From: Alphaproteobacteria bacterium
GTDB taxonomy: Bacteria > Pseudomonadota > Alphaproteobacteria > Bin95
DNA length: 64,000 bases
NCBI GenBank assembly: GCA_965205265.1
Contig: CBDBGH010000003.1
Span: 3,264,001-3,328,000 of the forward strand
Direction: 5' to 3'
Shown: positions 14,902 to 64,000 of the stretch, piece after piece
How the letters are laid out: each line of letters begins with the position of its first letter
Numbering within the stretch: the first letter of the stretch is position 1
Notes under the pieces: model-generated
Databases searched by the model: none
What the model was told of the DNA's origin: nothing
The model's input: the letters and a program-made list of their open reading frames with translations, nothing else
Made by a program: the position numbers and the translations under genes

Positions 14902-14904
14902 CGC

Positions 14905-15198: not shown

Positions 15199-15208
15199 CG
15201 CCCCGCCC

Positions 15209-15544
15209 TCACACGATCGCCGTGCCGACCAGGCCGGTGACGATGCCGGTGCCGGCCCCCGCGGCGATGCCGACGCCCACCGCGCCCATCAGCTGCATGG
15301 CGTTGAAGCGCAGCACCGAACCCACCAGCGCGGCCCCCACCGCCAGCGCCGCCGCCAGCTGGCCGCCGGTGCCCTCGACGATGTTCTCCACCGTCCCCAG
15401 CGGGCCCGCAAAGGTGCTGTCCGAGGCCGCCAGCGCCCCGTCCGCGCCCGCCAGCACGGCCGCTGCCGCCGCGAACGCCGTCAGCGTCCCGGCAGCGGCG
15501 GCAGGCGCCGCATCTCCGTTCGGCCGGGCCAGCCCCGCCGTCAC
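15209..15544 (-). CDS. traA: Conjugative pilin TraA
   Basis: Short hydrophobic ORF with leader and two TM segments directly upstream of traL; GTG start. Confidence 0.75.
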   Translation of the reverse strand: MTAGLARPNGDAAPAAAAGTLTAFAAAAAVLAGADGALAASDSTFAGPLGTVENIVEGTGGQLAAALAVGAALVGSVLRFNAMQLMGAVGVGIAAGAGTGIVTGLVGTAIV

Positions 15545-16242: not shown

Positions 16243-16264
16243 GGCGAGGGAAGATAGGCGGGCG

Positions 16265-16302
16265 GATTGTCGTTGACAATCGTATCGTTTAGTGAATACG
16301 CT
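16265..16302 (+). promoter_or_regulatory. Putative operator palindrome overlapping a sigma70 promoter in the cI/cro intergenic region
   Basis: GATTGTC-GTT-GACAATC (16265-16281) contains TTGACA (16273-16278); TACGCT lies 18 bp downstream. Confidence 0.6.
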
Positions 16303-16346
16303 ATGCCATCGCCTGACAGGCGGCGACAGACCAGCGAGGCAGCCCC

Positions 16347-17060
16347 ATGGAACGCGACCCGGTACGACAGACAATCCGCGATCTCCTCTGGAAGCGCGGC
16401 ATGACCATGCGCGAGGCGTCGCTCGCCATCGGCCGCAACGTCTCCTACCTGCACGGTTTCCTCGAACGCGGGAGCCCCAGGGTGCTCTCCCACCGCGACG
16501 CCGAGACCCTCGCCGGCCTGCTCGGCTGCAAGGCGGACGCCCTGCACCACGCCGAACGCCCGGCCCGGCGCAAGGCAGCGGGGCCGAAGAAGCGGCGGCA
16601 GGAGACGGGGCAGGGGCCGGAACGGGGGCCGGTCCCGCTCGCCGCCATCCCCGAGGTCGATGTCGAGGCCTCGGCCGGACCCGGCGCGCTCGCCGGCGAG
16701 TACGTCGCCGAGCGTGCCCGCTGGTTCCTCCCCGATGGCATGATCCGCCACGAGGGCGGCGCCAGCCCCGGTGCCATCCGCGCGCTCCGCGTGCGCGGCG
16801 ACTCCATGGAACCCGAACTCTCGGAAGGCGACCGCCTGCTCGTCGACACCGCCCGCCGCGTCCCCGAAACCGGCGAGATGTTCGTCCTCTGGGACGGCGC
16901 CGGGCTCGTCGTCAAGCGCGTCGAGCGCCTGCCCGCCGGCGATGACGCCCCGCCCCGCCTGCGGCTGAAGTCGGCCAACCCCGGCTACGACGACTACACA
17001 TGCCTCGCCGACGAGGTCCACATCGTCGGAAAGGTCCTCTGGACCCTCAGACGGGTGTGA
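16347..17060 (+). CDS. CI/LexA-like repressor (HTH + S24 autopeptidase)
   Basis: N-terminal HTH (SLAIGRNVSYL), Ala-Gly site ASAGPG, VRGDSMEP Ser, VVKRV Lys. Confidence 0.92.
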   Translation: MERDPVRQTIRDLLWKRGMTMREASLAIGRNVSYLHGFLERGSPRVLSHRDAETLAGLLGCKADALHHAERPARRKAAGPKKRRQETGQGPERGPVPLAAIPEVDVEASAGPGALAGEYVAERARWFLPDGMIRHEGGASPGAIRALRVRGDSMEPELSEGDRLLVDTARRVPETGEMFVLWDGAGLVVKRVERLPAGDDAPPRLRLKSANPGYDDYTCLADEVHIVGKVLWTLRRV

Positions 17061-17124
17061 ACGCGGGCGGGTGCGCCATCCTTCCCGCCTTGCCGTTCAG
17101 CCGGCAGGCCGCGCACCCTCGGTG

Positions 17125-17260
17125 ATGCTGCCGAGGCTGAAGGCCATCGCGCGGCCGGGGCGTTGCCTGGACAACAAGGCCGAGTACCGCTTCAGGCTCC
17201 GGGCGGTGAACAGCGCCGCCAGTGGCACGGCCACCGACCGGGAAGCCTCAGCGCCAGGGC
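17125..17260 (+). pseudogene. Fibronectin type III domain remnant
   Basis: LDNKAEYRFRLRAVNSAASG matches the Fn3 C-terminal L.N...Y.F.VRAVN..G.G motif, with no full domain around it. Confidence 0.55.
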
Positions 17261-17484
17261 CGACGGCGATTTTCACCCCACATCCGTCGCCGTGGCGTCC
17301 CGGCATCGGGTTTCGCGTGCGGCGGTATCGCGCCCGCCGATCGTGCGCACGATATGGAGTTGTCGCCATCGGGCCCCGGGCCTTTGCCTGAAGCAGGACA
17401 GCGCAGGCGGCGCCGATGTCCGGGGCTATCGCGAAGCGGCGGCGGTCGCCGCGGAGATGCGCGCCGCGCCGGCGCGGCCGGCGG

Positions 17485-18690
17485 TCATGGCGCGGGACAC
17501 GGAGGATCGGTCTCGCCCGCCAGGTCGGCGCGGAGGCTCTCGGCGACGCGCGCCGCCGACGCCTTCACCGAATCGCGCGCGAGATGAGCGTAGCGCGCCG
17601 TGGTCTGCACCTTCCGATGGCCGAGCATCCGGCCGATCATCGGCAGGCTCTCGCCAAGCGCCAGGGCGCGCGAGGCAAAGCTGTGCCTGAGGTCATGGAT
17701 GCGGACGTCCTTCAGGTCCGCGCGGACCCGCACCGCGAGCCAGGCGTTGTTGAGGTTGCTGAGCCGCGCGCCCGGCCTCGCTCCGGAAATCACCCAGGGA
17801 TTGTCCGGCAGGCGCGGCATCCCGGCAAGCACGCGCCGCGCCGCCGGCGAGAGCGCGACCGAACGCGCGCCGGTCTTCGCGTCGCGCAACCTGATCTCGC
17901 CCGCCTCGAGGTCCACATCGGCCCAGCGCAGCGTCAGGACCTCGTTGCGCCGGCACCCGGTGAGCATCAGCAGGCGGAACGCCGCCACCGCGCTCGGATG
18001 CACCCTGCCCTCGGCCTCGACCGCGTCGAGCGTGCGCCCGAGGCGCCGGAACTCCTCATCGGAGAGGAAGCGCTCGCGGCTCTTCTCCCGATACTTGCGC
18101 ACGAACCGGCACGGATTGCCGCCCTCCGGCGCGATCCCCCACAGCTCGGCCATGCGGAAGAGGCGCGAGAGCATGTCCAGGACCCTGTTCGCCATCGCCG
18201 GCGTCTCGTGCAGGCTGTAGTGCAGCGCCGCGACGCGTTCGCGGCCGATCTCCCCGAGGCGCACCGGGCCGAGCGCGGGCAGCAGGTGCCTGTCCAGGAC
18301 ATGCCGGCACTGGCGCACCGTGGTCGGCTTGCAGCGCACCTTGACGTGCTCCGTCATGCAGCGCTCCGCCACCTCCGCGACCGTGGGGCCGGCGTCCGCC
18401 GGGGCCGCGCCGCCGTCGGGCGCCGGCTCCCTGCCGGCCTTGAGGTCGGCGATGATGCGCGCCGCCTTCGTCCGCGCCTGGTCCGCCGTCATCAGCCCGT
18501 GACGCCCGACGGTCAGCCGGCGCGACCTGCCGCCCGCCCGCGTCTGCACGAGGTAGACCTTCGAACCGCTCGGATACACGCGGACCCCGAAGCCCTGAAG
18601 CTTCGAATCCCAGTGGACCGTCTCCCGCTCGCCCACCGGCAGCGCCTCCACGGTCCGGCGCGAGATCCGCTGTGCGTTCAGCTTCGTCAT
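17485..18690 (-). CDS. Tyrosine integrase with arm-binding N-terminal domain (Int1)
   Basis: WDSKLQGFGVRVYPSG; catalytic GCRRNE, HDLRHSFAS, LGH, RY. Confidence 0.95.
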   Translation of the reverse strand: MTKLNAQRISRRTVEALPVGERETVHWDSKLQGFGVRVYPSGSKVYLVQTRAGGRSRRLTVGRHGLMTADQARTKAARIIADLKAGREPAPDGGAAPADAGPTVAEVAERCMTEHVKVRCKPTTVRQCRHVLDRHLLPALGPVRLGEIGRERVAALHYSLHETPAMANRVLDMLSRLFRMAELWGIAPEGGNPCRFVRKYREKSRERFLSDEEFRRLGRTLDAVEAEGRVHPSAVAAFRLLMLTGCRRNEVLTLRWADVDLEAGEIRLRDAKTGARSVALSPAARRVLAGMPRLPDNPWVISGARPGARLSNLNNAWLAVRVRADLKDVRIHDLRHSFASRALALGESLPMIGRMLGHRKVQTTARYAHLARDSVKASAARVAESLRADLAGETDPPCPAP

Positions 18691-18727
18691 CGTCCGCTCC
18701 CGGCTGTCCCCGTGTCCGTCGCGCCCG

Positions 18728-19912
18728 TCACGGATCCGCCCGCTCCGTGAGGATGTCGGCGCCGATGCTGTCGGCGACCCTCGCCGTCGAGGCCCGCACC
18801 GACTCCCGCGCGAGGTGCGCGTAGCGGGCCGTGGTGTCGATCTTCCGGTGACCGAGCAGTTCGCCGATCATGCTCAGGCTCTCGCCGAGCGCGAGCGCCC
18901 TGCTGGCGAAGCTGTGGCGCAGGTCGTGAAGGCGGACGCCGTCGAGGTCCGCGTGCCTGCGGATGCGGTCCCAGGCATCGTTGATGTTGGTCTGGTGAGT
19001 ACCCTTCTTCCGCCCCGGGAACACCCATGGATTGCCGGCGACGCGGGGCAGTGCCGCCAACACCGCCGCCGCCGCGGGCGGCATCGGCACGATGCGCGCG
19101 CCGGTCTTGCTGTCGGCGAACCGCATCTCGCCCGCCTCGAAGTCGAGGTCGTCCCAGGCCAGCCCCATGATCTCGTTGCGCCGGCACCCGGTCAGCACCA
19201 GCAACCGGATCGCCGCCGCCGAGTGACGGGAGGCGAGACGCTTCGCGGGGGCAATGTCGAGCGTGCGTCCGAGCCGTGCGAGTTCCCCGGACGTCAGGAA
19301 CCGCTCCTTCCGGGGGGCCACCTTGTAGCGGGGCACCGACCGGCATGGGTTGCGCCCCGGCGGACGCATCTCCCAGAGTTCCGCCATGTTGAACATCTTC
19401 ACCAGGATGTCGACGCAACGGTTCGCCACCGTCGGCATGCCGCTCAGACCGAACTGGAACGCGAGGATGTCCTTGCGCGCCACCTGCGACACGGGATGCG
19501 CTCCCAGGCCCGGCACGATGTGCTTCTTCAGCATCAGGCCGTAGTGCCTGATCGTATTCGGCTTGCAGTGCATGGCGACGTATTCGCGCTCGTAGCGCTC
19601 GGCCAGATCGGCCACGGTCGGCGCGGGTTCGGTCTCCGGCTCGACAGGCGGCAATCCGGCCTTGATGCGCGCAAGCAGCTTCGCCGCCTCCCTGCGCGCC
19701 TCGGCGGGCGCGATGTCCCCGTGCCGGCCCACGGTCGCGCGGACCGACCTGCCCTTCGCACGGGCCTGCGCCACATAGACCTTGCGCCCCGTGGGGTAGA
19801 CGCGAATCCCGAACCCCGGCAGTTCGCTGTCCCAGAACACGCCGTCCTTTCCGTTGACCGCGAGACGGTCCACGATACGCTTGGTAAGCGTTCGGTCCTG
19901 GCGTTCGGGCAT
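18728..19912 (-). CDS. Tyrosine integrase with arm-binding N-terminal domain (Int2)
   Basis: WDSELPGFGIRVYPTG; GCRRNE, HDLRHSFAS, LGH, RY; paralog of Int1. Confidence 0.95.
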   Translation of the reverse strand: MPERQDRTLTKRIVDRLAVNGKDGVFWDSELPGFGIRVYPTGRKVYVAQARAKGRSVRATVGRHGDIAPAEARREAAKLLARIKAGLPPVEPETEPAPTVADLAERYEREYVAMHCKPNTIRHYGLMLKKHIVPGLGAHPVSQVARKDILAFQFGLSGMPTVANRCVDILVKMFNMAELWEMRPPGRNPCRSVPRYKVAPRKERFLTSGELARLGRTLDIAPAKRLASRHSAAAIRLLVLTGCRRNEIMGLAWDDLDFEAGEMRFADSKTGARIVPMPPAAAAVLAALPRVAGNPWVFPGRKKGTHQTNINDAWDRIRRHADLDGVRLHDLRHSFASRALALGESLSMIGELLGHRKIDTTARYAHLARESVRASTARVADSIGADILTERADP

Positions 19913-47957: not shown

Positions 47958-48946
47958 ATGCGCGTCGCGATAACCGGCGGCGCCGGCTTTATCGGCCGGC
48001 GGCTCGCGCTCCGGCTGCTGGAGGTGAATGCGCTGACGGACTCCGCCGGCCGGGAGCAGCCGGTCGAACGGATCGTCCTGTTCGACCGGGCCGCGCCCGA
48101 CCCGCGCCTGCTGCACGACCCGCGCGTCGAGGCCGTCATCGGCGATATCGGCGACCCGGAGCAGGTTGCGGCCGTCATCGCCCCGGACACGGGCGCCGTC
48201 TTCCACATGGCGGCGGTGGTGAGCGCCGGGGCGGAGGAGGATTTCGACCTCGGCATGACGGTCAACCTCCAGGGCACGATGAATGTGCTGGCCGCCGCGC
48301 GGAACCTGCCGGACCCGCCGCGCCTGGTGTTCGCAAGCTCGGTCGCGGTCTATGGCGGCGCCATGCCGGAGACGATCCCGGACGGGCTGATACTCAACCC
48401 GCAGACCTCCTACGGCGCGCAGAAGGCCATCGGGGAGTTGCTGGTGCAGGACTATGCGCGCAAGGGCTATGTGGACGGGCGGGCGCTGCGCTTCCCGACG
48501 GTCGTGGTGCGGCCCGGCAAGCCCAACAAGGCGGCCTCGACCTGGGCGAGCTCGATCATCCGCGAGCCGCTGCAGGGCGAGGAGGCCGTCTGCCCGGTAG
48601 AGCCGGACCAGGCGATGTATGTGCTCTCGCCGCGCAAGGTGGTGGACGCCGTGCTGAAGGCCGCCGCCCTGCCGCCGGAAGCCTGGGGCCCGGCCCGGAT
48701 GCTGGCGCTTCCGGGCCTCACCGTCACCGTGCGCGAGATGCTGGCGGCGCTTGCGGCCGTCGCCGGCGAGCGGGTGGCGGCGCGCGTCGCCTTCGAGCCC
48801 GACCCCTTCATCCAGCGGATCGTGAACGGCTGGCCCACCCGTTTCGACCCGGCGCGGGGCCGGGCGCTCGGCTTCGAGACCGACACGGACTTCGAGGAAA
48901 TCGTGCGCATCTTCATCGAGGACGAACTCGGCGGGAGCTTCGCGGC

Positions 48947-48950
<4 letters not shown>
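47958..48950 (+). CDS. NAD-dependent epimerase/dehydrogenase, D-erythronate dehydrogenase (DenD)-like
   Basis: ITGGAGFIG, AAVVSAGAE, YGAQK, RPGKPNKAAS...IIREPL. Confidence 0.85.
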
Positions 48951-50566
<1,616 letters not shown>

Positions 50567-50647
50567 ACAGTTACGCCCGGCGGCCTGCATCCCTATGCTC
50601 GCATCCAAGCCACTGAACCGACCGAAGACCGAAGAGAGGGACACCCG

Positions 50648-52300
50648 ATGAGCGAACTGACGGGTTCGGCGATCCTCGCCAAGGCGCTGCGCAGGCAGGG
50701 ATGCGACGAGATGTTTTTCCTGATGGGCGGCCCGATGCTGCTGGCGGAGACCGAATGCGCCAATGAAGGCATCCGCATGGTGGATGTGCGCCACGAGCAG
50801 GCCGCCGCGATGATGGCGCATGCCTATGCGCGGCTGCGCACGAAGCCCGCGGCCTGCATGGCGGCGTCGGGGCCGGGCGTCACCAACCTGGTCACCGGCC
50901 TCTGCAACGCGCTGGTCGATTGCACGCCGGTGGTCGCGGTCGGCGGCTGCTCGCCGCTGCGCCAGTTCGGCCAGGACGTCTTCCAGGAGATCGACCAGAT
51001 GCGGATCATGGAGGGCTGCGTGAAGTGGTCGGCCCGCGTGTACGACCCCCGCCGCATCCCGGAAATCGTCGATATCGCCTTCCAGCAGGCCATGGCCGGC
51101 AAGCCGGGGCCCGTCTATATCGATATGCCGGGCGACATCCTCTACACGAAAGTGCCCGAGGAGGAGATCAACTGGACGACTTCGGGCCGCCCGCTGCTCC
51201 GCAGCCGCCCGGCCGGCCAGCAGGACCTGATCGAGGAGACCGCCGCGATCCTGGCCAACGCGGAGCGCCCGGTGATGATCTCCGGCTCCGGCATCCTCTG
51301 GTCCGAGGCGTCCGAGGCGATGCACCGCTTCGTCGATGCGTCCGGCATCCCCTTCTACACCACGCCGCAGGGCCGGGGCGTCGTGCCGGAAGACCATCCC
51401 TGGCACTACGCCACCATGCGCTCGACCGCCTTCCGCGAGGCGGACTGCATCCTGATCCTCGGCACGCGGCTCAATTACATCGTCGGCCATGCCGCCCCGC
51501 CGCGCTTCAATGCCGATGCGCGCATCGTGCGCATCGACATCGACCAGACCGAGATCGCCCAGAGCCCGCGGCCCATCGACATCGGCATCGTCGCGGATGT
51601 GCGCACGGCGCTGGAGCAGCTGATGGAGGCCATCGACGGGCGCTTCGATGCCGACCGCTTCAAGGCCTGGCGCGACCGGCTGGCGGAGGGCGAGGCGGAA
51701 AAGCGCGCCCGTCCGGGCGGCAACGCCCAGTCCGACGAGGTGCCGATCCACCCGCTCCGGCTCTGCGAGGAAGTCAAGAACTTCATGAACCGGGACGCCA
51801 TCCTGGTGGTGGACGGGCAGGAGATCCTGAACTACGGGCGCCAGTCCATGCCGACCCACACGCCCGGCCACCGGCTGAACTCCGGCCCCTTCGGCACGAT
51901 GGGCGTGGGCCTGCCCTACGCCATCGGCGCCAAGGTCGCCAAGCCGGACAAGCAGGTCATCTGCGTGCATGGCGACGGCTCCATGGGCCTCAACGCCATG
52001 GAGCTCGAAGCCGCCCAGCGCCAGGGCATCCCGGTGCTGGTGGTCATCAGCTGCAATGGCGGCTGGACCGCCGATCCGGGCCGCGAAAAGATCGGCCGCG
52101 ACCTGGGCTATGTGCGCTTCGACAGGATCGCCGAGGCGCTCGGCTGCTATGGCGAGCAGGTCGAGGAACCGGACGGCATCCGCGCCGCGCTGGAGCGGGG
52201 CCAGGCGGAGGTGGACAAGGGCCGCGTCGCCGTCATCAATGTCGTGACGGACTACCGCGCCCGCGCCGGCACGGTCCAGTTCGCGCAATACTCGACCTGA
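50648..52300 (+). CDS. ThDP-dependent enzyme (2-hydroxyacyl-CoA lyase/oxalyl-CoA decarboxylase/ALS-like)
   Basis: VRHEQAA, SGPG, FQEID, GTMGVG, GDGSMG...N. Confidence 0.88.
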   Translation: MSELTGSAILAKALRRQGCDEMFFLMGGPMLLAETECANEGIRMVDVRHEQAAAMMAHAYARLRTKPAACMAASGPGVTNLVTGLCNALVDCTPVVAVGGCSPLRQFGQDVFQEIDQMRIMEGCVKWSARVYDPRRIPEIVDIAFQQAMAGKPGPVYIDMPGDILYTKVPEEEINWTTSGRPLLRSRPAGQQDLIEETAAILANAERPVMISGSGILWSEASEAMHRFVDASGIPFYTTPQGRGVVPEDHPWHYATMRSTAFREADCILILGTRLNYIVGHAAPPRFNADARIVRIDIDQTEIAQSPRPIDIGIVADVRTALEQLMEAIDGRFDADRFKAWRDRLAEGEAEKRARPGGNAQSDEVPIHPLRLCEEVKNFMNRDAILVVDGQEILNYGRQSMPTHTPGHRLNSGPFGTMGVGLPYAIGAKVAKPDKQVICVHGDGSMGLNAMELEAAQRQGIPVLVVISCNGGWTADPGREKIGRDLGYVRFDRIAEALGCYGEQVEEPDGIRAALERGQAEVDKGRVAVINVVTDYRARAGTVQFAQYST

Positions 52301-52304
52301 CCTG

Positions 52305-52925
52305 ATGGCGGGCGCAGCGCGGCGCGCGGTGCGGGCGGCTGCGGCGGCATTGGCTGCACTCTGCTTGGCCGCCGCCGCTCCGCCGCCGCCGTCATCGCCG
52401 CCATCTTCGCCGCCGCCGCTGGAAGCGCTGTTCGGCGGGCCGTTCGAGCTGACCGACCATAACGGCCGGACGGTGACGGACGGGACCTTCCGGGGCCGCT
52501 TCGCGCTCCTCTATTTCGGCTACACCTTCTGCCCCGACCTCTGCCCGACCAACCTGCTGACCATGGCGGAAGCGGTCGAGGCGCTGGGGCCGGAGGGCGA
52601 GCGGGTGCAGCCGCTCTTCGTCACCGTCGATCCCGAACGCGACGATCCGGCGGCGCTCGGGGACTATATGGCGCATTTCGGCCCGCGCTTCCTTGGGCTT
52701 CGCGGCACGCCCGCCCAGACCCGCGCCGTGCTGAAGACCTGGCGCATCCACCGCCGCAAGGTGCCGGCCGAGGCCGGGGCGAATGCCGACGACTATCTGG
52801 TGGACCATGCGACCCTCACCTTCCTGATGGGGCCGGACGGGAAGTTCCGCACGCTCTTCCCGCATGACACACCGGCAGAGAAAATGACGGCCACGCTCCG
52901 CCGTTACCTCGCCGCCGAACGGTAG
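52305..52925 (+). CDS. SCO1/SenC family copper chaperone
   Basis: FGYTFCPDLCP, VDPERD, YLVDH. Confidence 0.93.
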   Translation: MAGAARRAVRAAAAALAALCLAAAAPPPPSSPPSSPPPLEALFGGPFELTDHNGRTVTDGTFRGRFALLYFGYTFCPDLCPTNLLTMAEAVEALGPEGERVQPLFVTVDPERDDPAALGDYMAHFGPRFLGLRGTPAQTRAVLKTWRIHRRKVPAEAGANADDYLVDHATLTFLMGPDGKFRTLFPHDTPAEKMTATLRRYLAAER

Positions 52926-53017
52926 CGACACCGGAGCTCCCAGCGGCCCGCCGCGGACGAGGCGGGGCGGCCACAAATTATGTTCACAAGAAATCAGTAA
53001 TAATTCTGACAAGAATA

Positions 53018-53045
53018 TTGACATTCAAGAATCATAGGCTATATT
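53018..53045 (+). promoter_or_regulatory. Sigma70-like promoter of dispersed module copy 2
   Basis: TTGACA-N16-TATATT in an AT-rich tract. Confidence 0.6.
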
Positions 53046-53273
53046 GGCACGGAAGAAGGAAGGGGCCTCCGGAGGCTGCTTCGTCTCCTGCTTGCGCACC
53101 GGTGACGCCTGCTTGTCGTCGCTCCGGCCGGGGCGACGCAAAAAGAAAGCCGGGCGGCATTCTCCATGAGTCATAACCCGGCGCCGCTGGTATTTCGCGC
53201 AAATTGGGGTTCCGCCGCAGCCGGGCCGGTGATGGCCGGAAGAACGGAACGAAGACGGCTCGAAAGGAAGACC

Positions 53274-53335
53274 CATGCCCGAAACCACCATCGCCCATGC
53301 CCCGACCGCATGCGGACCATGACATCTCATGACAC
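53274..53335 (+). repeat. Dispersed CATGCCCGAA...GCATGC...(CATGACA)x2 element, copy 2
   Basis: Same motif spacing as 45589-45660. Confidence 0.7.
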
Positions 53336-53479
53336 GTCCGGGGGTGTCCCGGCAGCTCTGCGCACCCTGTCCGTCGGAATCCGGCCACGGGTCCCGAACG
53401 GAGACGTGAATTCGGCGCGCCTTGCCGCAGGCCGAGGACATGGCCAGAGTCGCCGCGCCGCGGCGGATGGGAGACGGCA

Positions 53480-54547
53480 GTGACGGACGATTTCGGAATC
53501 TGGGAAGTGGACGAGGAGACTAAGGCCTCTAAGCAGCTGGAGGAAGCCGAGCGCACCGGCACAGAAGCGGTGCTGGAGGACATCCTGGTCCAGAACCCGG
53601 CCATGCTTATGCCGGGCCTCAAGCTGGTCGGAAGGCAATTGCAGACCGCCAACGGGCCCTTGGACCTGCTGGGCGTCGATTCCGAAGGCCGGCTGGTGGT
53701 GTTCGAATTGAAGCGGGAGAAGCTGAGGCGGGAGGCGGTGGCGCAAGCAGTCGATTACGCCTCCTGGCTCGACTCGCTGGACGACGCCGAACTCCACAGG
53801 CTGATTGGCGACAACTCGGGCCGGGGCGGCATCCGCGAGATCGGGAATTTCGAGGAGTGGTACGAAAGCAACGACAATTGGGACTCGCTGGAATCGTTGA
53901 GACCGATCCGGATCGTTCTGGTGGGCCTCGGAGCGGACGAACCGGCGCGGCGTATGGCCGACTGGCTGGCGAGGAAAGGCGTTGAAATCGACCTGCTGAC
54001 ATTTCTCGGATTCCGCCATGGGAACCGGATGCTGCTCGCAAGGCAACTCGAAAGCGGCGAGTGGAAGCCGCCGCGTCCGCCAAGTCGGAAAGGGGAGGAG
54101 CGCCGGGAACACCTCAACAGGAAGCTCGACGAATACGGAATGCGCGATTGGTGGCAGGACGCTATCGCCGCGCTCGAACTCAACTCCCGACCTTCCTACA
54201 AAGCGAACCTGGGGATTACGTTTTACAGGCGCAATGCGCGCACATTGGCGACGGGTGAAAGACAGGCTGCATCTCACAAAATCGAGATTGCCGATCCGGG
54301 CGACATTCGCATCATCTTCTTCCCAGCAGCGGTCGAACTTTGCCTGAGCGAGTTTCAGGAATTGAAAGACGCAATTCGATTCGATTGCCGGCGGCCGATT
54401 AACACGTGGCCCACGGAACGGGCACCCGAGGAATGGTTCTGCCGTTTGGACGAAAGTGGATGGCGGGAGCACAAGGGCAGCATCGCGGAGCTTGTCCGCT
54501 TGGTGGACGAGCGGTGGCGCGCGGCGGCGGAGCAGCCGGCCTCGTGA
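53480..54547 (+). CDS. NucS-like PD-(D/E)xK endonuclease domain protein
   Basis: EAVLEDILVQNP, VGRQ, LDLLGVD, VFELK, QAVDY. Confidence 0.85.
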   Translation: MTDDFGIWEVDEETKASKQLEEAERTGTEAVLEDILVQNPAMLMPGLKLVGRQLQTANGPLDLLGVDSEGRLVVFELKREKLRREAVAQAVDYASWLDSLDDAELHRLIGDNSGRGGIREIGNFEEWYESNDNWDSLESLRPIRIVLVGLGADEPARRMADWLARKGVEIDLLTFLGFRHGNRMLLARQLESGEWKPPRPPSRKGEERREHLNRKLDEYGMRDWWQDAIAALELNSRPSYKANLGITFYRRNARTLATGERQAASHKIEIADPGDIRIIFFPAAVELCLSEFQELKDAIRFDCRRPINTWPTERAPEEWFCRLDESGWREHKGSIAELVRLVDERWRAAAEQPAS

Positions 54548-55761
54548 GCCGGTTCGATGTCATCGTGGTCGGCGGCGGGCTGGTCGGGGCGGCGGTGGCG
54601 CGGGCCTTCGCCTCGGCCGGGCTGGAGGTGGCGCTGGTGGACCGCGCCCCGGTGCAGACGGGCCAGGCCTTCGACGGGCGCACCACCGCCGTTTCGCACG
54701 CCTCCGTGCAGGTGCTGCGGGGCGTGGGCCTCTGGCCGGCCATTGCGGCGCATGCCGAGCCGATGGCGGACATCCGCATCACCGACGGCGCCGCGCCGGT
54801 CTTCCTCCACTACGACCACCGCGAGGTCGGGGACGAACCGTTCGGCTATATCGTGGAGAACCGGCTGATCCGCAGCGCGGCGGCGGCGCTGCTGGAGCGC
54901 ACGGCGAATGTCGCGGTCTTCGCTCCGGCCGCGGCGGAGAGGAGCGAGCGCGGCGGGGGCCTCGCCCGGCTGTTCCTCGAGGACGGGCGCGTTCTGGAAG
55001 CGCCGCTCATCGTTGCCGCCGACGGGCGCGGCTCGCCGCTCCGCCGCGAAGCGGGAATCGGGACGGTGGCATGGGCCTACGGGCAGAAGGCGCTGGTGCT
55101 GACCGTCGGCCATGAGGAACCGCACGGCAATGTCGCGCATGAGCGGTTCCTCGCCGGCGGGCCGTTCGCGATCCTGCCGATGACCGACGGCCCGGAGGGC
55201 GAACACCGCTCCTCCATCGTCTGGTCGGAACGCAGCGATTTGGCCGACGCCCTGCTCTCGCTCGACGACGCGCGCTTCCTCCAGGAGCTCGAATGGCGTT
55301 TCGGCGATTTCCTGGGCGCCATCCGGCTCATCGGCCCGCGCTGGTGCTGGCCGGTCGGGCTCGTGCTGGCGGAGCGCTTCTACGCCGACCGGCTGGCGCT
55401 GGCGGGCGATGCGGCCTGCGGCATCCACCCCATCGCCGGGCAGGGCTTCAATCTCGGCATTCGCGGCGTGGCCGCGCTTGCGGAATGCACGGTCGATGCG
55501 TTCCGCCTCGGCCTCGATATCGGCAGCCCGGCCGTGCTGGCGGAATACCAGCGCCGGCAACGGGCGGACAGCGTGTTGCTGGCGGGCATCACGGACGGGC
55601 TGAACCGGCTCTTCTCGAACGACATTGCGCCCGTGCAGGCCGCGCGGCAACTGGGCCTCGCGGCCGTCGGGCGGCTGCCGGGCCTCAAGCGCGCCTTCAT
55701 GCGCCACGCCATGGGCGTCGCCGGCACGCCGCCCCGCCTCGTCCGCGGCCAGCCGCTCTGA
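54544..55761 (+). CDS. UbiH/UbiL-family FAD-dependent ubiquinone hydroxylase
   Basis: VGGGLVG, AADGRGS.LR, YGQ, AHERF, LAGDAA..IHPIAGQGFNLG. Confidence 0.9.
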   Translation: MSRFDVIVVGGGLVGAAVARAFASAGLEVALVDRAPVQTGQAFDGRTTAVSHASVQVLRGVGLWPAIAAHAEPMADIRITDGAAPVFLHYDHREVGDEPFGYIVENRLIRSAAAALLERTANVAVFAPAAAERSERGGGLARLFLEDGRVLEAPLIVAADGRGSPLRREAGIGTVAWAYGQKALVLTVGHEEPHGNVAHERFLAGGPFAILPMTDGPEGEHRSSIVWSERSDLADALLSLDDARFLQELEWRFGDFLGAIRLIGPRWCWPVGLVLAERFYADRLALAGDAACGIHPIAGQGFNLGIRGVAALAECTVDAFRLGLDIGSPAVLAEYQRRQRADSVLLAGITDGLNRLFSNDIAPVQAARQLGLAAVGRLPGLKRAFMRHAMGVAGTPPRLVRGQPL

Positions 55762-57762: not shown

Positions 57763-57802
57763 CGGGCGCGCGGCCATCCGGGCCGCGCGCCCGTCTTGCT
57801 TT
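57763..57802 (+). terminator. Rho-independent terminator after amtB
   Basis: 13-bp perfect stem CGGGCGCGCGGCC/GGCCGCGCGCCCG followed by TCTTGCTTT. Confidence 0.75.
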
Positions 57803-57870
57803 CCGCATCGCGCTGCGGCCGGCGATTGCATGCTAAGGTGGGCCGGTCGCAAGCAATGAACGGTCGGGTC

Positions 57871-58638
57871 ATGCGCAATCGGGGTCATGCGGTCGGCTTC
57901 GTTCTGTCCTGTTGGCTGGCGGTGGCGCTGGCCATGCCCCTGGCGGGCGTTGCCGATGCGCGCTCCATGGACGAGGCGCAGGCGGCCTATGCCGAGGGAC
58001 GGTTCACGGACGCAGCCCGGATTGCCGAAAGCCTCGGAACCTCCCGGGGATTTGCGCTGGCGGCGCAGTCGTTGACGGTCCACGGCTACTTCATTGCCGC
58101 CAGCGGCGAGAAGGGGGGGCTGTTCGAGCGGGCGCTCGGGCTCGCGCAAAAGGCGGTCCGCGCCGATCCCGGCAATGCGGACGCCCATCTGCAACTGGCG
58201 CGCGCCACCGGCCGGCTTGCGCAGACCGTCGGCTCCTTCGAGGCGGCGGACAGGGGATATGCGGAGCAGATCCGCGAGGCGACGGAGGACGCGCTCCGGC
58301 TCGACCCCGGCATGGCCCAGGCCCATATAAGTCTTGCCCGGTGGCACACGGGCATAGTCGGCAAGGCGGGGGCGTTCCTGGCGCGCCTGACCTACGGCGC
58401 CCGCGAAAAGGATGCGATCGCTTCCCTGGATCGGGCCCTCGAGCTCGCGCCCGATGCGAAGGACGTGCCGCTTCAATACGCGCTCGGCCTGCTGGAGCTT
58501 GACGAGGACGAACATCGCGAGAAGGCGCGAAGCCTGCTGAAGCGGTCCATCGCGATACCGGCGAAGGACGCCTTCGAACGCCTGCTGGACAAGCTGGCGA
58601 GGGACCGCCTCAAGGCCCTGGAGGCGCCCGGCGGCTGA
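57871..58638 (+). CDS. Exported TPR-like helical protein
   Basis: Signal peptide; repeated A...DP..A.AH..LA helices; start uncertain. Confidence 0.75.
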   Translation: MRNRGHAVGFVLSCWLAVALAMPLAGVADARSMDEAQAAYAEGRFTDAARIAESLGTSRGFALAAQSLTVHGYFIAASGEKGGLFERALGLAQKAVRADPGNADAHLQLARATGRLAQTVGSFEAADRGYAEQIREATEDALRLDPGMAQAHISLARWHTGIVGKAGAFLARLTYGAREKDAIASLDRALELAPDAKDVPLQYALGLLELDEDEHREKARSLLKRSIAIPAKDAFERLLDKLARDRLKALEAPGG

Positions 58639-58878
58639 CGGTTCCGGCGGGCGGACGGGCCTGCCCGGACTTGACTGAGGCGGCCTCTGCCCCGATGCTA
58701 AAGGGGTGACAGTTCAACGACGTAAGGCAACCGCAATCTTCGGAGATGCGTTGGATTGCGGATTGGCGCCGGCGCCGGTTTTTCGCCTGTTCCCTGTCCG
58801 CCGCCCGCTTCCGAAATCGTCGCGCTGCAACGGCGCCGATGCCCTGCCGTCGAGCCAGCTGCAAGGAGGCCATGGTCG

Positions 58879-60915
58879 ATGACCGCCGCCGCCACCGTAT
58901 GCACGAGAGTCCAGCCTCTAAGTTTGCCCGACGAGCTCATTCTGATGCTCCTCAACGACCAGACCGGATACTTCCACCAGGTTCCCGGCTGGAGATTGCA
59001 ATGCGCCGTCGCCGGCGCGGCGCTTGCGGAACTCTCGCTCCTTTCCCGCATCGACACGGACATGGAGTCGCTGGTCCTGCTGGACCGAACGGAGACCGGC
59101 GATCCCGCGCTGGACCCGCTGCTGAAGGAAATTGCCGACGAACCCGTTCAAAGGAACGCCCGTTACTGGATCGAACGGCTCGCCGCCGGGATCGAGCCGG
59201 TCATCGATCTGACGCTGGACAATCTGGTGCGCCGGAAGATCCTGGAACATCATGACGGCGACTTCTGGACGCTGACTCCCGCGCACTGGCTTGCACAGCG
59301 GGATGGGGAAGAGAGCTCTGCAAGCCAGTTCATCCGCACGCGCATCAGCGAGGCCATCTTCACCGACACGATTCCCGATCCGAGGGACGTGATTGTCATT
59401 TGCCTCATCAACACATGCGACGTCTTCCGCTTCATGTTCGAACTCAACGAGCAGGCGGAAGAGCGGATCGGGCTCATCTGCAGGATGGACCTGATCGGCC
59501 GTTCCATAGCCGAGGCGGTCGAACAGAATATCGCCAGCCCGCTGGGCCGCCCCGCGGCCCTGTCCCGGCGCATACCGCAGGTTCCGCTGCACCGCCTGCT
59601 GTTGAATCCGCATGTGCGCAAGGGCCATCTTCCCGCGCTCCTCGCAGACCTTGCGAAGGAATACGGCCCGGTGTTCCGGATAAGGCCGCCGGGCGCCAGG
59701 GCCATGACCTTCCTCGCCGGACCGTCGGTCAACCGGTGGGTGCACAAGAGCGGGCGGATGCACCTGAGGGCAGGGGGCTATTTTGCCGGCTTCGAGAACG
59801 TCTTCGGCGCGTCGGGCGTATTGCCTTCGCTGGACGGCGGCGACCATTTCCGGCTTCGCAAGGCCATGTCGCCGGCCTATTCGCGTGACCGGCTGGCCGG
59901 TCAGCTCGACCAGCTTTTCCATCTTGTCCGCAAGTTCATGGCGACCTGGACGGTCGGAGAGACCTACCAGGCAAGGTCCATGTGCCGGAGCATGGTCAAC
60001 GAGCAGATTTCGTCTCTCCATGTCGGCGTCGATACGCAGGACCTGATCGACGATCTGGTCACTTACAAGGAACGCGCGCTCAGCGTCCATATCATAAAGA
60101 CCATGCCCAAATTCATGCTGAAAACCCCAGGCATGAAACGCCGGGCGAAAGCCATTGACGAAATGCTGGAACGGGTCCGGCGCACTCACACGCCCGCCCA
60201 GCGGGCCGGTTGCCCGCGGAACCTTGCGGACGACGTGCTGGGCCTGAATGTGAGCGATCCGCAACTGGTGCCGGAATCGAATCTGCGCTTCGCCCTGACG
60301 GCGACGGGGCTGACCAGCGTGTATTTCGGCGACATGCTCAGCTTCGCGATTTACGCCATGGTTTCGCAACCTGCGATCCACGAGAGAATCCGAGGCGAGG
60401 CGGACGCCCTGTTCGAGGGCGGCGATCCGGTTGGCGAGGACTTCACCCTGGCCGCCACCGATGTCACTCACCGCTTCCTGCAGGAATGTCTGCGGATGTA
60501 CCCGGTCATCGCGATGTCCGTGCGCGATGTGGTGAACTCCTGCGTGGTCGAGGGGCACGAACTGCCGGTCGGGACGCGGGTCTATATCGCCCAGGCGGCC
60601 TCGCACTATATGGACGACGTGTTTCCCGACCCCTTCTCCTTCGATATCGACCGCTACCTGCCCCCGATCAGCGCGCACCGCAGTTTCGGATTCGCGCCCT
60701 ACGGACTGGGCACGCACACCTGTCTCGGCATCCGGCAGGCGCTTCTGCAAATGACGGTCAATATGATGATGATCGCGCATTACTTCACGATAGCGGTGTC
60801 TCCTTCGGACTATGAGCTCCGGTTCAACCCGGTTCCGTCGATGAAGCCGACGAAGAAGCTGAAATTCCACATCGCCGAGCAGAGGCGCGAACTGCCTGTC
60901 CGATCTGCCCCGTGA
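58879..60915 (+). CDS. GPP34 (GOLPH3-like) domain fused to cytochrome P450
   Basis: N-terminal LSLPDELILMLL..G..AGAALAEL..RI..TGDPALD..W..L...PDPRD; C-terminal ECLR, DP..FD.DRY, FAPYGLGTHTCLG; AGGAGG SD. Confidence 0.85.
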   Translation: MTAAATVCTRVQPLSLPDELILMLLNDQTGYFHQVPGWRLQCAVAGAALAELSLLSRIDTDMESLVLLDRTETGDPALDPLLKEIADEPVQRNARYWIERLAAGIEPVIDLTLDNLVRRKILEHHDGDFWTLTPAHWLAQRDGEESSASQFIRTRISEAIFTDTIPDPRDVIVICLINTCDVFRFMFELNEQAEERIGLICRMDLIGRSIAEAVEQNIASPLGRPAALSRRIPQVPLHRLLLNPHVRKGHLPALLADLAKEYGPVFRIRPPGARAMTFLAGPSVNRWVHKSGRMHLRAGGYFAGFENVFGASGVLPSLDGGDHFRLRKAMSPAYSRDRLAGQLDQLFHLVRKFMATWTVGETYQARSMCRSMVNEQISSLHVGVDTQDLIDDLVTYKERALSVHIIKTMPKFMLKTPGMKRRAKAIDEMLERVRRTHTPAQRAGCPRNLADDVLGLNVSDPQLVPESNLRFALTATGLTSVYFGDMLSFAIYAMVSQPAIHERIRGEADALFEGGDPVGEDFTLAATDVTHRFLQECLRMYPVIAMSVRDVVNSCVVEGHELPVGTRVYIAQAASHYMDDVFPDPFSFDIDRYLPPISAHRSFGFAPYGLGTHTCLGIRQALLQMTVNMMMIAHYFTIAVSPSDYELRFNPVPSMKPTKKLKFHIAEQRRELPVRSAP

Positions 60916-60934
60916 CGACCGGCGGAGCCGGGCG

Positions 60935-61756
60935 CTACCGCGCCCGTTTCAGCGCCGTGCGGGTGAAATCGTCGAGGTCGAGGTCGGTCCCGAACTCGTA
61001 TTCCGCCCACACTAGGTCGGTGCTCTTGCCCGTGAGATGGTTCGTCATCGCTATCTTGCTGCTCCGCCAGAAGCGGTCGAGATATTTCTTGTAGCCCTCC
61101 GAGACCATCGTCTTGAGATGGGCGTCCCTGCGGTCGAAATACTGGATCTGCATAGTGCGGAGCTCTTCCCGATCGAGCCAGACGAGCTGGCGGGAATAAC
61201 CGGAATCCTTGCTTGTCGGGACCCGTTCCAGAACGGCGCACTGGAGATCGCCGCAGGGCTCGTCGCGCAGATAGCGATGGGTGAATTTCTCGACCTCGGC
61301 CGCGCCGAAGTCCTCATATGAGAACTCGCTGCCCATGAAGGAGCCGGACTGGTTCGAGGAGCTGATGCGCTTGACCCGTTTCAGCGCGGGAAGATAGAGC
61401 CACTGGTCGTCCGGATCGTTCTTGTGGGCGTGGACGAGGAACGCCGTTCCCTTCACGTCGCGCGGCCGGTCGAACACGAACATGCTGCGGTCGCCGTCTT
61501 CCTCCACCTCGATGACTTTCAGGCGGAGTTCGCGGTGGCTTTCCTGCCCCCGCTTGTTGCGCAGCGTCATGGTCAGGCTTGCGGTGAAATTGCCGAACCC
61601 CTTCTGCCGCTCGCGGGCTTCCGTCGCGATCTTGAGCCCCTGCTCCTCGGGGCTGTCGGCCGCCCGGCCGGCGGAAGGCGCAAGCGACCAGACAAATACA
61701 GCCAGCACGGCCGCGGACAAGGCAAGCATCGGATGGGGGAGAGAGACGCGAATCAC
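60935..61756 (-). CDS. Outer membrane lipoprotein-sorting (LolA-like) protein
   Basis: Signal peptide, PRDVKGTAFL, DDQWLYLPALKRVKRI, FMGSEFSYED; GTG start with GGAGG. Confidence 0.88.
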   Translation of the reverse strand: MIRVSLPHPMLALSAAVLAVFVWSLAPSAGRAADSPEEQGLKIATEARERQKGFGNFTASLTMTLRNKRGQESHRELRLKVIEVEEDGDRSMFVFDRPRDVKGTAFLVHAHKNDPDDQWLYLPALKRVKRISSSNQSGSFMGSEFSYEDFGAAEVEKFTHRYLRDEPCGDLQCAVLERVPTSKDSGYSRQLVWLDREELRTMQIQYFDRRDAHLKTMVSEGYKKYLDRFWRSSKIAMTNHLTGKSTDLVWAEYEFGTDLDLDDFTRTALKRAR

Positions 61757-61825
61757 CGTTTCCTCCTTTCGGCAGCGCTGCCGGATTCTCTTTGCAGAGG
61801 ATAGCACAATGCCTGCCGCAAGGGC

Positions 61826-64000
61826 TTAGCCGGCTTCCCGCCGCAACCGCTCCTTGATCTCTTCGGTCGTCTCCCTGGTCCCGTCGAGCACCATCAGCAG
61901 GGGCGGGAGGAACAGGAAGTCCGCCAGCAGGGCGATGATGACCGTCATGCCGGCCAGCAGGCCGAGCGCCTGGTTGGTCACCATGCCCGATGCGCCGAAC
62001 ACCATGAAGCCGAGGCCGAACACGACCGTCGTCGCCAGCAGCGCCTTGCCTACCGAACGGAAGGCGGACTGCACCGACTGAGACGGCAGCAGCCCGTTCT
62101 TCCTGGCGGCCACATATTGGGTCATGAAGTGGATCGTATCGTCCACGATGATGCCGAACGCGATCGCGGTGACCACCGACGCCGCGATGCCGACCTCGCC
62201 CACCAGATAGCCCCAGAGGCCCATCGCCATGGCCGCGGGGACGAAGTTCGGAATCAGGCTGATGACGCCGAGGCGCACGCTCCTGAAGACGAGAAGGAGC
62301 AGCAGGGAGACGATGGCCATGGCGATGAAGGTGCCGAGCAGCATGCCCTCGATGTTTCTTTGGATCGACTGGGCGCCAACGACCGCAACGCCGGTGGCGC
62401 CGGTATCCATGCCGGGGGCGTTCTGCCCGAGCCATGCCTGTGCGCGACGGTCGAGCGCGACCTTGTCGTTGCTGGAAAGGCTGCGCAGCACGACGGTCAT
62501 GCGCGTGGACGACCGCTCGACATCGATGAGATTGTTGAGGTCGCGGCCGACCGGCAGGGAGAACTCGTAGAGCAGCAGATATTGCGCAGCCAGATCGGAG
62601 TCGTCGGGAAGAATGTCGAACGCCGGATCGTCGCCATGCAGGTTCCTGTTCAACCGCTTCATGATGTCGGTGATGGCGAAGACATGGGAGACTTCCGGCT
62701 GCGCCCGGTGCCACTCGACGAACGCATCCACCCGTTTCAGGTAGTCGATATCGGTTATGCCGCCCTCCCGCCCGGCGCTCAGCGAGTATTCGTAAGTCTC
62801 CACGCCGGAGAAGTTCTCGCTGATGAAATCCGTGGACCGGCGGAACTCGTAGCTCTCGTCGAGAAGCTCCAGCCAGTTCTCCTTGAGTTCGATCCGCGAA
62901 ATGCCGGCGATGAGCACGACGACCAGGACGCCGAAAGAACCGAGCAGGACCGTCCGGCGCAAAACGACAAACCGGCCGAACCGGTCGAAGAGGTCCGATT
63001 CGCCCGTGCCGGAGGGCCGGATGCGCAGGGGCATGACCGACAGGATGACGGGCAGGAGCGTCACCGCATAGACGAACGCGCACAGGCTGCCGAACGCCAC
63101 CATATTGCCCATGACCCGGAAGGGCGGCATGTCCGCGAAATTGAGGCTGAGGAACCCGATCGCCGTCGTGAGCGAGGTCAGGAAAACCGGCCAGATATTG
63201 ACCCGCAGGGATTGAAGCGCCGCCTGGCTGCGGTCCAGGCCCCGGCGCAGGCCCGCCGCCATTCCCTCGAACATATGCACGGAATGCGCAACGGTGACCG
63301 CCATCAGCACGAACAGTGCCGCGCCGCTCTCGCCGAAGAACCTCATGCCGGTCCAGCCGACAAAGCCCATCGCGGAAGCGAGAACGGCAACGAGCATGAT
63401 GACGATGGCAAGCGTGCCCCAGAGCGAGCGCAGCAGAATGACGGCGACAACCAGCATCGTTCCGAGCGCTGCCGGCGCGAGAATGCTCATATCCTCGTCG
63501 ATCGCCTCGCGCATGGCGCGGTTGAGGATGAGTTCGCCGGTCAGGTGGTAGTCGATGGCCGCATGTTTCTCGCGGGATTGCGCGGCCGTGGCGTGAAGGA
63601 AATCGGTCACTTCCGCTTTGGCCGATTGCCGGTCCTCGTCGGGAAGCGCAACGCTGACCGCCAGGCCGGCGACACGGCCGTTCCGGGAAACGAAGCGTCC
63701 GGCAATTTCCTCGGTGCCGAGCGCGATCTTCTCGATGCGCGCGAGGTTCTCGTCGCTCAGCGAAGCGGCGTCTCCGACCAGCGGCTCGACGATCAGCTCG
63801 TCTTCGAGACCCCGGCTGTGCTGGTGGTTGGTTATCGAATCGACGCGGGTGACATAGGGCGTCTGCCAGAGCCGATCGGTCAACTCTTCGATGGCAACGA
63901 GCGCCTCGCGCGTGAAAATCGTGCCCTTCCGCGGCGCAGCCACCACAAGCGCGGCGTCGGAAAGGGCGTAGGTTTCCTCCAAACGGTCCAGTGCGACGAT
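61826..64000 (-). CDS. MMPL/RND family exporter (5' end outside window)
   Basis: Two TM repeats, LTSLTTAIGFLSL, SLIPN..P, GIIVDDTIH; frame open to the window edge. Confidence 0.92.
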   Translation of the reverse strand: MVALDRLEETYALSDAALVVAAPRKGTIFTREALVAIEELTDRLWQTPYVTRVDSITNHQHSRGLEDELIVEPLVGDAASLSDENLARIEKIALGTEEIAGRFVSRNGRVAGLAVSVALPDEDRQSAKAEVTDFLHATAAQSREKHAAIDYHLTGELILNRAMREAIDEDMSILAPAALGTMLVVAVILLRSLWGTLAIVIMLVAVLASAMGFVGWTGMRFFGESGAALFVLMAVTVAHSVHMFEGMAAGLRRGLDRSQAALQSLRVNIWPVFLTSLTTAIGFLSLNFADMPPFRVMGNMVAFGSLCAFVYAVTLLPVILSVMPLRIRPSGTGESDLFDRFGRFVVLRRTVLLGSFGVLVVVLIAGISRIELKENWLELLDESYEFRRSTDFISENFSGVETYEYSLSAGREGGITDIDYLKRVDAFVEWHRAQPEVSHVFAITDIMKRLNRNLHGDDPAFDILPDDSDLAAQYLLLYEFSLPVGRDLNNLIDVERSSTRMTVVLRSLSSNDKVALDRRAQAWLGQNAPGMDTGATGVAVVGAQSIQRNIEGMLLGTFIAMAIVSLLLLLVFRSVRLGVISLIPNFVPAAMAMGLWGYLVGEVGIAASVVTAIAFGIIVDDTIHFMTQYVAARKNGLLPSQSVQSAFRSVGKALLATTVVFGLGFMVFGASGMVTNQALGLLAGMTVIIALLADFLFLPPLLMVLDGTRETTEEIKERLRREAG

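Follow-up and report, generated by a model that had tools for sequence, protein, structure and literature searches.

The stretch of DNA considered here, which we call the window, is 64,000 nucleotides (nt) long and belongs to an alphaproteobacterial genome (GenBank assembly GCA_965205265.1, contig CBDBGH010000003.1, positions 3,264,001 to 3,328,000, forward strand). Close to its right-hand end it carries a gene for a protein of 678 amino acids (aa) in which a GPP34 domain, of the family to which human GOLPH3 and yeast Vps74 belong, is joined in frame to a cytochrome P450 (P450). Beyond this fusion gene, on the opposite strand, lie genes for a LolA-like carrier and for a transporter of the RND superfamily. 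The parts of the fusion are as follows (AF2, AlphaFold2):

58864..58870, + strand: ribosome-binding site AAGGAGG, 8 nt 5' of the ATG at 58879 (direct sequence reading)
58879..60915, + strand: GPP34-P450 fusion gene, 678 aa, intact (Pfam, homologues, AF2 model)
58924..59523, + strand: GPP34 domain, residues 16-215 (Pfam PF05719, E 5.7e-31)
59524..59595, + strand: inter-domain linker, residues 216-239 (Pfam borders; lower model confidence at 220-229)
59596..60864, + strand: cytochrome P450 domain, residues 240-662 (Pfam PF00067, E 2.1e-32)
60484..60495, + strand: ExxR motif, E536-C-L-R539 (E536 and R539 in 81/81 fusions)
60691..60729, + strand: heme-binding loop, F605...PYGLGTHTC615LG617 (C615, G609 and G611 in 81/81 fusions)

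The fusion gene and its relatives

The initial annotation of the window read this frame as a GPP34-like N-terminus followed by a complete P450, and the Pfam search that it proposed bears this out. Both domains score above the curated cut-offs (PF05719, 108.6 bits versus 29.1, model positions 1-199 of 201; PF00067, 113 bits versus 22.8, model positions 10-459 of 462), and the ExxR motif and heme cysteine are in place. The open frame runs from 58756 to 60915 (+) and comprises 719 aa when counted from an upstream TTG; the ribosome-binding site in front of the ATG at 58879 is strong. The guanine-plus-cytosine (GC) content of third codon positions, 0.79, is that expected for a real gene in the source genome.

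The same annotation allowed that two separate genes might have been misjoined in assembly. The fusion is real. Among the matches listed, 119 of 120 homologues (67-98% identical, ~675 aa) contain both Pfam domains, the sole exception being an N-truncated protein of 578 aa, and a scan of species genomes, one genome per species, returned at least 344 pattern matches, with at least 310 stretches encoding a relative of the fusion. These come from independent assemblies, and an artefact is therefore excluded. A DNA contig of 3490 nt, from a run labelled sponge metagenome, spans positions 58724-61000 at ~96% identity and includes the whole gene. Two contigs from RNA libraries (X17 record 10 and X18 record 19) bridge the domain junction of related fusions; they derive from relatives 90-96% identical to the window gene, and were rejected as evidence of its expression.

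More distant relatives are plentiful. Searched alone against 1.8 billion cluster representatives, the GPP34 domain gave 1730 matches at E values up to 0.001, many of them proteins of 630-690 aa that are just 30-55% identical. Both domains were present in 28 of 30 selected longer matches (504-1093 aa; alignment A2), and several old subfamilies of the fusion therefore exist. Variants on the theme also occur: P0132 (444 aa) and P0137 (872 aa) have two GPP34 matches per chain, and P0137 may be a GPP34-GPP34-P450 protein.

This domain arrangement is not new to the literature. Ferreira et al. (Microbiome 2025;13:4; PMC11706023) named it 'GPP34_L', reported that 656 of 663 long GPP34 proteins, from many phyla, are GPP34 plus P450, and stated that GPP34_L occurs only in sponge symbionts. 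The window fusion shares its size and the order of its two domains. According to the same paper, GPP34 is enriched in sponge symbionts and missing from their free-living relatives, and has other fusion partners too, a Rieske domain in 2 genomes and an ABC ATPase in 5. The remark in the initial annotation that no characterised example was known thus stands only in part: the architecture has been published, and a literature search found no biochemical characterisation of a GPP34-P450 fusion.

The GPP34 and P450 domains

Compared singly with the PDB by phmmer, the GPP34 domain matched nothing significantly (E 0.23); significance came with a profile search. A profile of 31 bacterial GPP34 domains matches human GOLPH3 (3kn1, E 5.6e-18) and yeast Vps74 (2zii, E 3.3e-16) over ~190 positions. 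What is shared with these proteins is a homologous helical domain and, at the equivalent place, a predicted beta-hairpin (residues 122-132, with strands 122-125 and 129-132 in the AF2 secondary structure). What differs is that the bacterial clade has near-invariant motifs of its own, namely RIDTD (57-61), IPDPRD (165-170), MDLIGR (203-208), R155 and R196, and that in the window the domain is joined to an enzyme.

The largest difference concerns the pocket for phosphatidylinositol 4-phosphate (PI4P), which in GOLPH3 is formed by W81, R90, R171 and R174 (Wood et al. 2009, PMC2806290). In the profile alignment these align with P36, A45, E106 and I109 of the window protein, and across the fusions the three arginines are replaced by residues that are mainly hydrophobic or acidic:

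R90-equivalent position, 81 fusions: V 41, I 24, A 11, T 3, G 1 (one gap)
R171-equivalent position, 81 fusions: E 77, D 3 (one gap)
R174-equivalent position, 81 fusions: I 71, V 9 (one gap)

In 80 of the 81 aligned fusions, all three positions are without a basic residue. Judged by this alignment, the domain is a true homologue of GOLPH3 and Vps74 that has lost the PI4P pocket, and the premise of the initial annotation, membrane targeting by GOLPH3 and Vps74 through PI4P, does not carry over to it. A simple 19-residue hydropathy scan detected no long hydrophobic stretch at the N-terminus of the fusion protein; the highest-scoring window is a core helix of GPP34 (residues 171-189).

The P450 domain is complete. 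The heme loop is of the FxxGxxxCxG type and starts with Y608 in place of the usual F, and in the linker that precedes the domain P221, L228 and P233 are invariant across 30 close homologues. The I-helix reads G477-L-T479-S480, in which the acid-alcohol pair (A/G-G-x-D/E-T) is missing; more divergent GPP34-P450 fusions retain AGxDT. By sequence, the closest solved relatives are CYP120A1, a retinoic-acid hydroxylase (E 8.8e-19), and CYP51 (E 5.1e-17). The window protein shares the P450 fold with both; it differs from them in that the E values are only ~1e-17 to 1e-19, and in having G-L-T-S in place of the acid-alcohol pair.

An AF2 model built from 46 diverse sequences has a mean predicted local distance difference test (pLDDT) of 88.4 and a predicted template modelling score (pTM) of 0.83. 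(A first model, from 30 close homologues, was dropped; its mean pLDDT was 56.3, and its P450 part was unreliable.) Foldseek gave target template modelling (TM) scores of 0.77-0.82 against P450 BM3, Methylococcus capsulatus CYP51 (0.82) and CYP184A1. In a Foldseek search of the PDB with the full model, the hits were mostly P450 BM3 entries and gave no hint of the substrate; GOLPH3 was not listed for the N-terminal domain in this search, no separate fold search with the GPP34 domain having been made. P450 BM3 (CYP102A1) and the CYP51-ferredoxin fusion of M. capsulatus are also precedents for a P450 with a helper domain on the same chain, from which the window protein differs in that its helper is N-terminal and non-redox. 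Pfam detects GPP34 and p450 only, and no flavin or iron-sulfur reductase domain, in the fusion chain.

Whether the two domains pack against each other was addressed by complex prediction on the separated domains, which scored 0.51 (runs of 0.54, 0.51 and 0.14), the best control reaching 0.00. Agreement between runs is 62% of contacts or more, and partner pLDDT is at least 79. In calibration on 80 solved complexes and 110 mismatched pairs, 58 of the former and 2 of the latter reached the mark; scores of 0.60 or less were seen in only 7 of the 80 solved complexes, and in both of the mismatches that passed. The predictions hint, weakly, at packing of GPP34 against the P450 domain.

Gene neighbourhoods and spread

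Neighbourhoods were compared in the best 80 of the at least 310 loci, all of which match across both domains. The counterparts, in metagenome-assembled genomes (MAGs), are 62-91% identical to the window fusion. Every open reading frame (ORF) of 70 aa or longer from these loci entered a clustering without prior labels, and the clusters were named by Pfam; a neighbour is an ORF within 10 kb of the fusion. Spelling out flavin adenine dinucleotide (FAD) and the sterol-sensing domain (SSD) here, the counts are:

Rieske + KshA_C oxygenase: 55/80 loci
Sterol methyltransferase (CMAS + Sterol_MT_C): 52/80 loci
Amino_oxidase-type FAD enzyme: 39/80 loci
MMPL/SSD/Patched RND pump: 30/80 loci
AcrB: 17/80 loci
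RND pump of the type found in the window: 16/80 loci (ORF clusters)
Any pump: 63/80 loci
Any of methyltransferase, Rieske and FAD enzyme: 68/80 loci
Any of six neighbour classes: 75/80 loci; none: 5/80
Rarer neighbours: HlyD 11, ABC ATPase 11, OEP 9, ERG4/ERG24 9, Rieske + VanA_C 6 and LppX/LprAFG-like lipoprotein 6 of 80 loci

The initial annotation had supposed that the P450 acts on membrane lipids or sterols, and the frequency of sterol-type enzymes and pumps in these rows fits that supposition. Of the five loci that have none of the six classes, two are contigs of less than 4 kb, and another (L007) has both carrier and pump by tblastn. Different phyla have pumps of different subfamilies, three in all, beside the fusion, and this suggests a function that includes export. 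The conserved neighbours of at least 70 aa yielded no cluster of ferredoxins or reductases; smaller ferredoxins would escape this cut-off. Six frequent 'unknown' clusters (~110-320 aa) were discarded, being shadow frames that lie antisense to the genes for methyltransferase, Rieske oxygenase and pump.

Two further observations concern individual loci. The LppX/LprAFG-like lipoprotein is a weak match (E 9.8e-05) that does not reach the Pfam cut-off. Its gene is found no more than 10 kb from the fusion at L031:18422-19198 and in five other Chloroflexota-type loci; it may be the counterpart of the proteobacterial LolA-like carrier. In a MAG of the Thermodesulfobacteriota (L016:7746-11998), there are apparently two tandem GPP34-P450 ORFs beside an AcrB pump.

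The tree of 81 fusions takes in 10 named phyla. Path lengths are short (0.72-0.73 from the window fusion to L013 and L068, of the Gammaproteobacteria), and several well-supported clades mix phyla; one, for example, groups Nitrospirota with Alphaproteobacteria at 100. The short branches and mixed clades fit horizontal transfer, as Kelly et al. (2022) reported for sterol clusters.

In the window itself, the genes around the fusion are these:

57796..58638, + strand: tetratricopeptide-repeat (TPR) protein gene, directly upstream of the fusion (Pfam TPR matches)
60935..61807, - strand: LolA-like periplasmic lipid or lipoprotein carrier (Pfam LolA_like, E 9.9e-59; PDB 3bk5, E 8.1e-80)
61826..64000, - strand: MMPL/RND-type transporter with a sterol-sensing-domain match (Pfam MMPL, E 7e-38; Sterol-sensing, E 7.5e-07)

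The carrier gene is convergent with the fusion, 19 nt from its stop codon. The same carrier adjoins the fusion in 12 of the 80 loci (70-86% identical) and the pump does so in 17 by tblastn (53-95% identical; the lowest value is that of L059, and the highest that of a 206-aa fragment in L007). In the carrier and pump loci these identities mostly exceed the 63-68% of the fusion, L006 and L007 being the exceptions. The 5' end of the pump gene may extend past the edge of the window; against the PDB, the pump has just a distant match to MmpL5 (8.8e-09). From fusion through carrier to pump (58700-64000), the block has a GC content of 0.62-0.64, compared with a mean of 0.682 for 2-kb windows of contig C3, and 0.681 for the whole genome; just 6.3% of the 2-kb windows of this contig lie at 0.635 or lower. 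GC returns to ~0.69 immediately beyond the end of the window.

Upstream of the fusion, on the same strand, are glnK, amtB and the TPR gene. The association of the TPR gene with the fusion is weak, since just 6 of the 80 loci have a homologue of it at a distance of 10 kb or less. Further upstream there is a run of oxidoreductase genes at 47958-52300 (+), comprising a gene of the epimerase/3-beta-hydroxysteroid dehydrogenase family, an FMO-like flavin monooxygenase and a thiamine diphosphate (ThDP) enzyme, and then an FAD monooxygenase gene at 54406-55761. Apart from weak single matches, homologues of these oxidoreductases (47958-55761) were not found near the fusion in other loci.

The source genome also has a cluster for sterol synthesis, ~0.9 Mb away (locus L086, G000:C3:2408001-2428000, at 9240-19345). 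Its genes are, in order, a sterol methyltransferase (+), the C-terminal part of squalene epoxidase fused to an oxidosqualene cyclase (-), a DDE transposase (-), the N-terminal part of squalene epoxidase, CYP51 (-), ERG24 (-) and a Rieske + VanA_C gene (-). The CYP51 of this cluster matches that of M. capsulatus with an E value of 3.9e-105, whereas the best CYP51 match of the fusion's P450 has one of 5.1e-17. Since the genome has this separate CYP51, the fusion is an additional P450 of a different family, and not the 14-demethylase. The cassette methyltransferase is just 42-48% identical to the methyltransferase of the sterol cluster. Clusters of this kind are known from sponge symbionts: Brown et al. 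(2023; PMC10070321) and Kelly et al. (2022; PMC9531527) describe clustered genes for sterol methyltransferases and Rieske proteins (sdmA-type) from ~10 phyla, with evidence of horizontal transfer, and the source genome carries such a cluster. The core P450 of the published clusters is CYP51, in the source genome a separate gene from the fusion. The main texts of these two papers do not mention GPP34, and mention P450 not at all (Brown) or once (Kelly). No paper linking the fusion to sterol clusters was found in the literature, though the supplements of Ferreira et al. (2025) and Brown et al. (2023) may hold such data.

Other GPP34 genes are present in this genome. A second GPP34-P450 gene, 31% identical to the window fusion, is found at L005:6511-9792 (-), or G000:C3 ~4676510-4679791. 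It has a canonical G-L-D-T I-helix and a frameshift near residue 615, just past a string of proline codons, and is either a pseudogene or the product of a homopolymer assembly error. Read straight through, it would be a triple fusion of 1093 aa with an ecdysteroid-kinase-like (EcKL) end. We reject this reading: the heme loop FGLGRHRCLG occurs in another frame after the proline codons, and the locus therefore comprises a frameshifted P450 and a separate kinase gene. The EcKL/APH gene follows directly, and genes for a major facilitator superfamily (MFS) protein and an outer membrane protein (OMP) beta-barrel flank the pair. Two further GPP34 genes are standalone, and both directly follow a gene for a STAS-domain protein (L087:5090-6081 and L088:4036-6390, in G000:C3:524000-536000 and 5280000-5292000). 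In the L088 pair, an IS605-type OrfB/TnpB gene stands between STAS and GPP34, and an ankyrin-repeat gene lies upstream; the L087 pair is followed by a family-25 glycosyltransferase gene. If conserved, the STAS-GPP34 pair might indicate the function of bacterial GPP34.

A putative sterol-tailoring module and its rivals

From these sequence comparisons, we consider that the fusion is probably a P450 of the cytoplasm whose substrate is a sterol or a polycyclic triterpenoid closely related to one. It would tailor this lipid as a heme-thiolate monooxygenase, and would be one part of a module of genes that sponge-associated bacteria have shared by horizontal transfer. In full, this putative module would comprise the GPP34-P450, an Erg6-type sterol methyltransferase, a KshA-like Rieske oxygenase, an amine-oxidase-family FAD oxidoreductase and a pump of the RND superfamily. 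The window would hold a minimal, proteobacterial version of it, in which the P450 fusion is accompanied by the LolA-like periplasmic carrier and the MMPL/SSD-type RND pump, and these two would take the product to the outer membrane. Since the neighbourhood has no gene for a redox partner, electrons would have to be supplied by a ferredoxin system elsewhere in the genome. The GPP34 domain might hold the P450 at the inner face of the inner membrane or hand over the lipid substrate to it, and in so doing may replace the transmembrane anchor of eukaryotic sterol P450s. The published Rieske and ABC-ATPase fusions (PMC11706023) accord with a role of GPP34 as an accessory to lipid-handling enzymes and transporters.

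Several observations weigh against a sterol-tailoring enzyme. The substrate class, the export step and the role of GPP34 are inferences, on which gene context bears only indirectly. In the window there is no sterol methyltransferase, KshA-like Rieske oxygenase or FAD enzyme, and no cassette Rieske or FAD enzyme was detected anywhere in the source genome (tblastn, E 1e-8, at least 50% coverage). Only the pump and carrier tie the window copy to lipids, and as it has no flanking sterol enzymes its case rests on its relatives. The P450 is approximately equidistant from CYP120A1, CYP51, BM3 and CYP46A1, and no NCBIfam equivalog comes near its cut-off for the fusion (best 63.9 bits versus a cut-off of 800); the fold therefore names no substrate. 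Position 479 of the I-helix is A in 77 and T in 4 of the 81 fusions, and S480 is invariant. The usual acid is thus gone from the close subfamily, and the chemistry may therefore be atypical. Some functional P450s likewise do without the acid-alcohol pair. Finally, the DDE transposase gene splits the squalene epoxidase of the sterol cluster, with a short stretch of the epoxidase present twice, once on each side, and a tblastn search of the source genome for another copy of the epoxidase found none. The de novo route to sterols may be interrupted in this strain, and its own supply of sterol is therefore uncertain.

The lipid in question could also be something other than a sterol. A module of the same type might oxidise a hopanoid or other triterpenoid, a carotenoid or retinoid, or a long-chain fatty compound, which carrier and pump would then export. 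The best PDB sequence match, CYP120A1 (8.8e-19), acts on retinoic acid; MMPL/HpnN-type pumps and LolA-like carriers transport many classes of lipid; no sterol enzyme lies beside the fusion in the window; and the 42-48% identity between the cassette methyltransferase and that of the sterol cluster points the same way. Amino_oxidase-family FAD enzymes include carotenoid desaturases, which we also count here. We nevertheless regard a non-sterol substrate as unlikely, as the Sterol_MT_C, KshA_C, ERG4/ERG24 and sterol-sensing/Patched signatures indicate sterols, and the source genome possesses CYP51, ERG24 and an oxidosqualene-cyclase-type gene.

Another explanation retains the enzyme and reinterprets its partner: GPP34 would be a protein adaptor rather than a binder of lipids or membranes, tethering the P450 to partner enzymes or to the pump in one assembly. 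The loss of the lipid pocket while RIDTD, IPDPRD, MDLIGR, R155 and R196 stayed near-invariant would suit such a role, as would the STAS-domain genes that precede both standalone GPP34 genes, STAS being a fold typical of protein-protein switching. The binding of GOLPH3 and Vps74 to glycosyltransferases involves the cytosolic parts of these enzymes and does not depend on the PI4P pocket (Wood et al. 2009, PMC2806290), and GPP34 has varied fusion partners: P450, Rieske and ABC ATPase (PMC11706023). The window copy, however, has no other cassette enzymes nearby to be tethered, and the interface between the two domains of the fusion, the only one examined, is weakly supported. We give this idea little credence.

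The proposal of Ferreira et al. (PMC11706023) is of a different kind, and we think it very improbable for these fusions. On it, GPP34 is secreted, binds host PI4P on sponge phagosomes and halts their maturation, the P450 being an accessory. GPP34 is indeed homologous to the PI4P effectors GOLPH3 and Vps74, and its enrichment in sponge symbionts relative to free-living bacteria (PMC11706023), the 96%-identical copy in a run labelled sponge metagenome and the ankyrin-repeat gene near one standalone GPP34 gene all agree with it. The pocket on which it depends, though, is not kept: basic residues are missing from the three arginine positions in 80 of the 81 fusions, and the R171 position is acidic (E 77, D 3). 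The hydropathy scan revealed no hydrophobic, signal-like segment at the N-terminus, and export seems unlikely for a heme enzyme that depends on a redox chain of the bacterium. In 75 of 80 loci, moreover, the neighbours are metabolic enzymes and pumps, and not secretion systems; the gene context is of sterol type. The main text of the 2025 paper, for its part, contains no 'sterol', 'steroid' or 'signal peptide'.

A P450 that tailors sterols thus remains the reading that we prefer, and we can extend it, if only tentatively. Bacterial GPP34, fused to or paired with sterol oxygenases (P450, Rieske) and transporter ATPases, might be a hand-off module that passes sterol intermediates between tailoring enzymes of the cytoplasm and RND/LolA-like export, rather than a reader of phosphoinositides; as a general statement about the family this is, in our opinion, unlikely. 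If true, a horizontally shared cassette would let many unrelated sponge symbionts make or remodel unusual sterols, with a bearing on who makes the sponge-type sterols that serve as the oldest animal biomarkers, and on what role GOLPH3 had before it was a Golgi adaptor.

The fusion is among the most widespread of the genes that mark sponge-associated bacteria, and the sole published idea of its function, a PI4P-binding effector that keeps phagosomes from maturing, presupposes a pocket that the fusions lack. The link to methyltransferase, Rieske and pump genes offers a different hypothesis, and one that is directly testable. It touches the debate over the bacterial share in the unusual sponge sterols that serve as Neoproterozoic biomarkers of animals. 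To this the window adds what would be a reduced module, of P450, carrier and pump, in a bacterium with a separate cluster for sterol synthesis.

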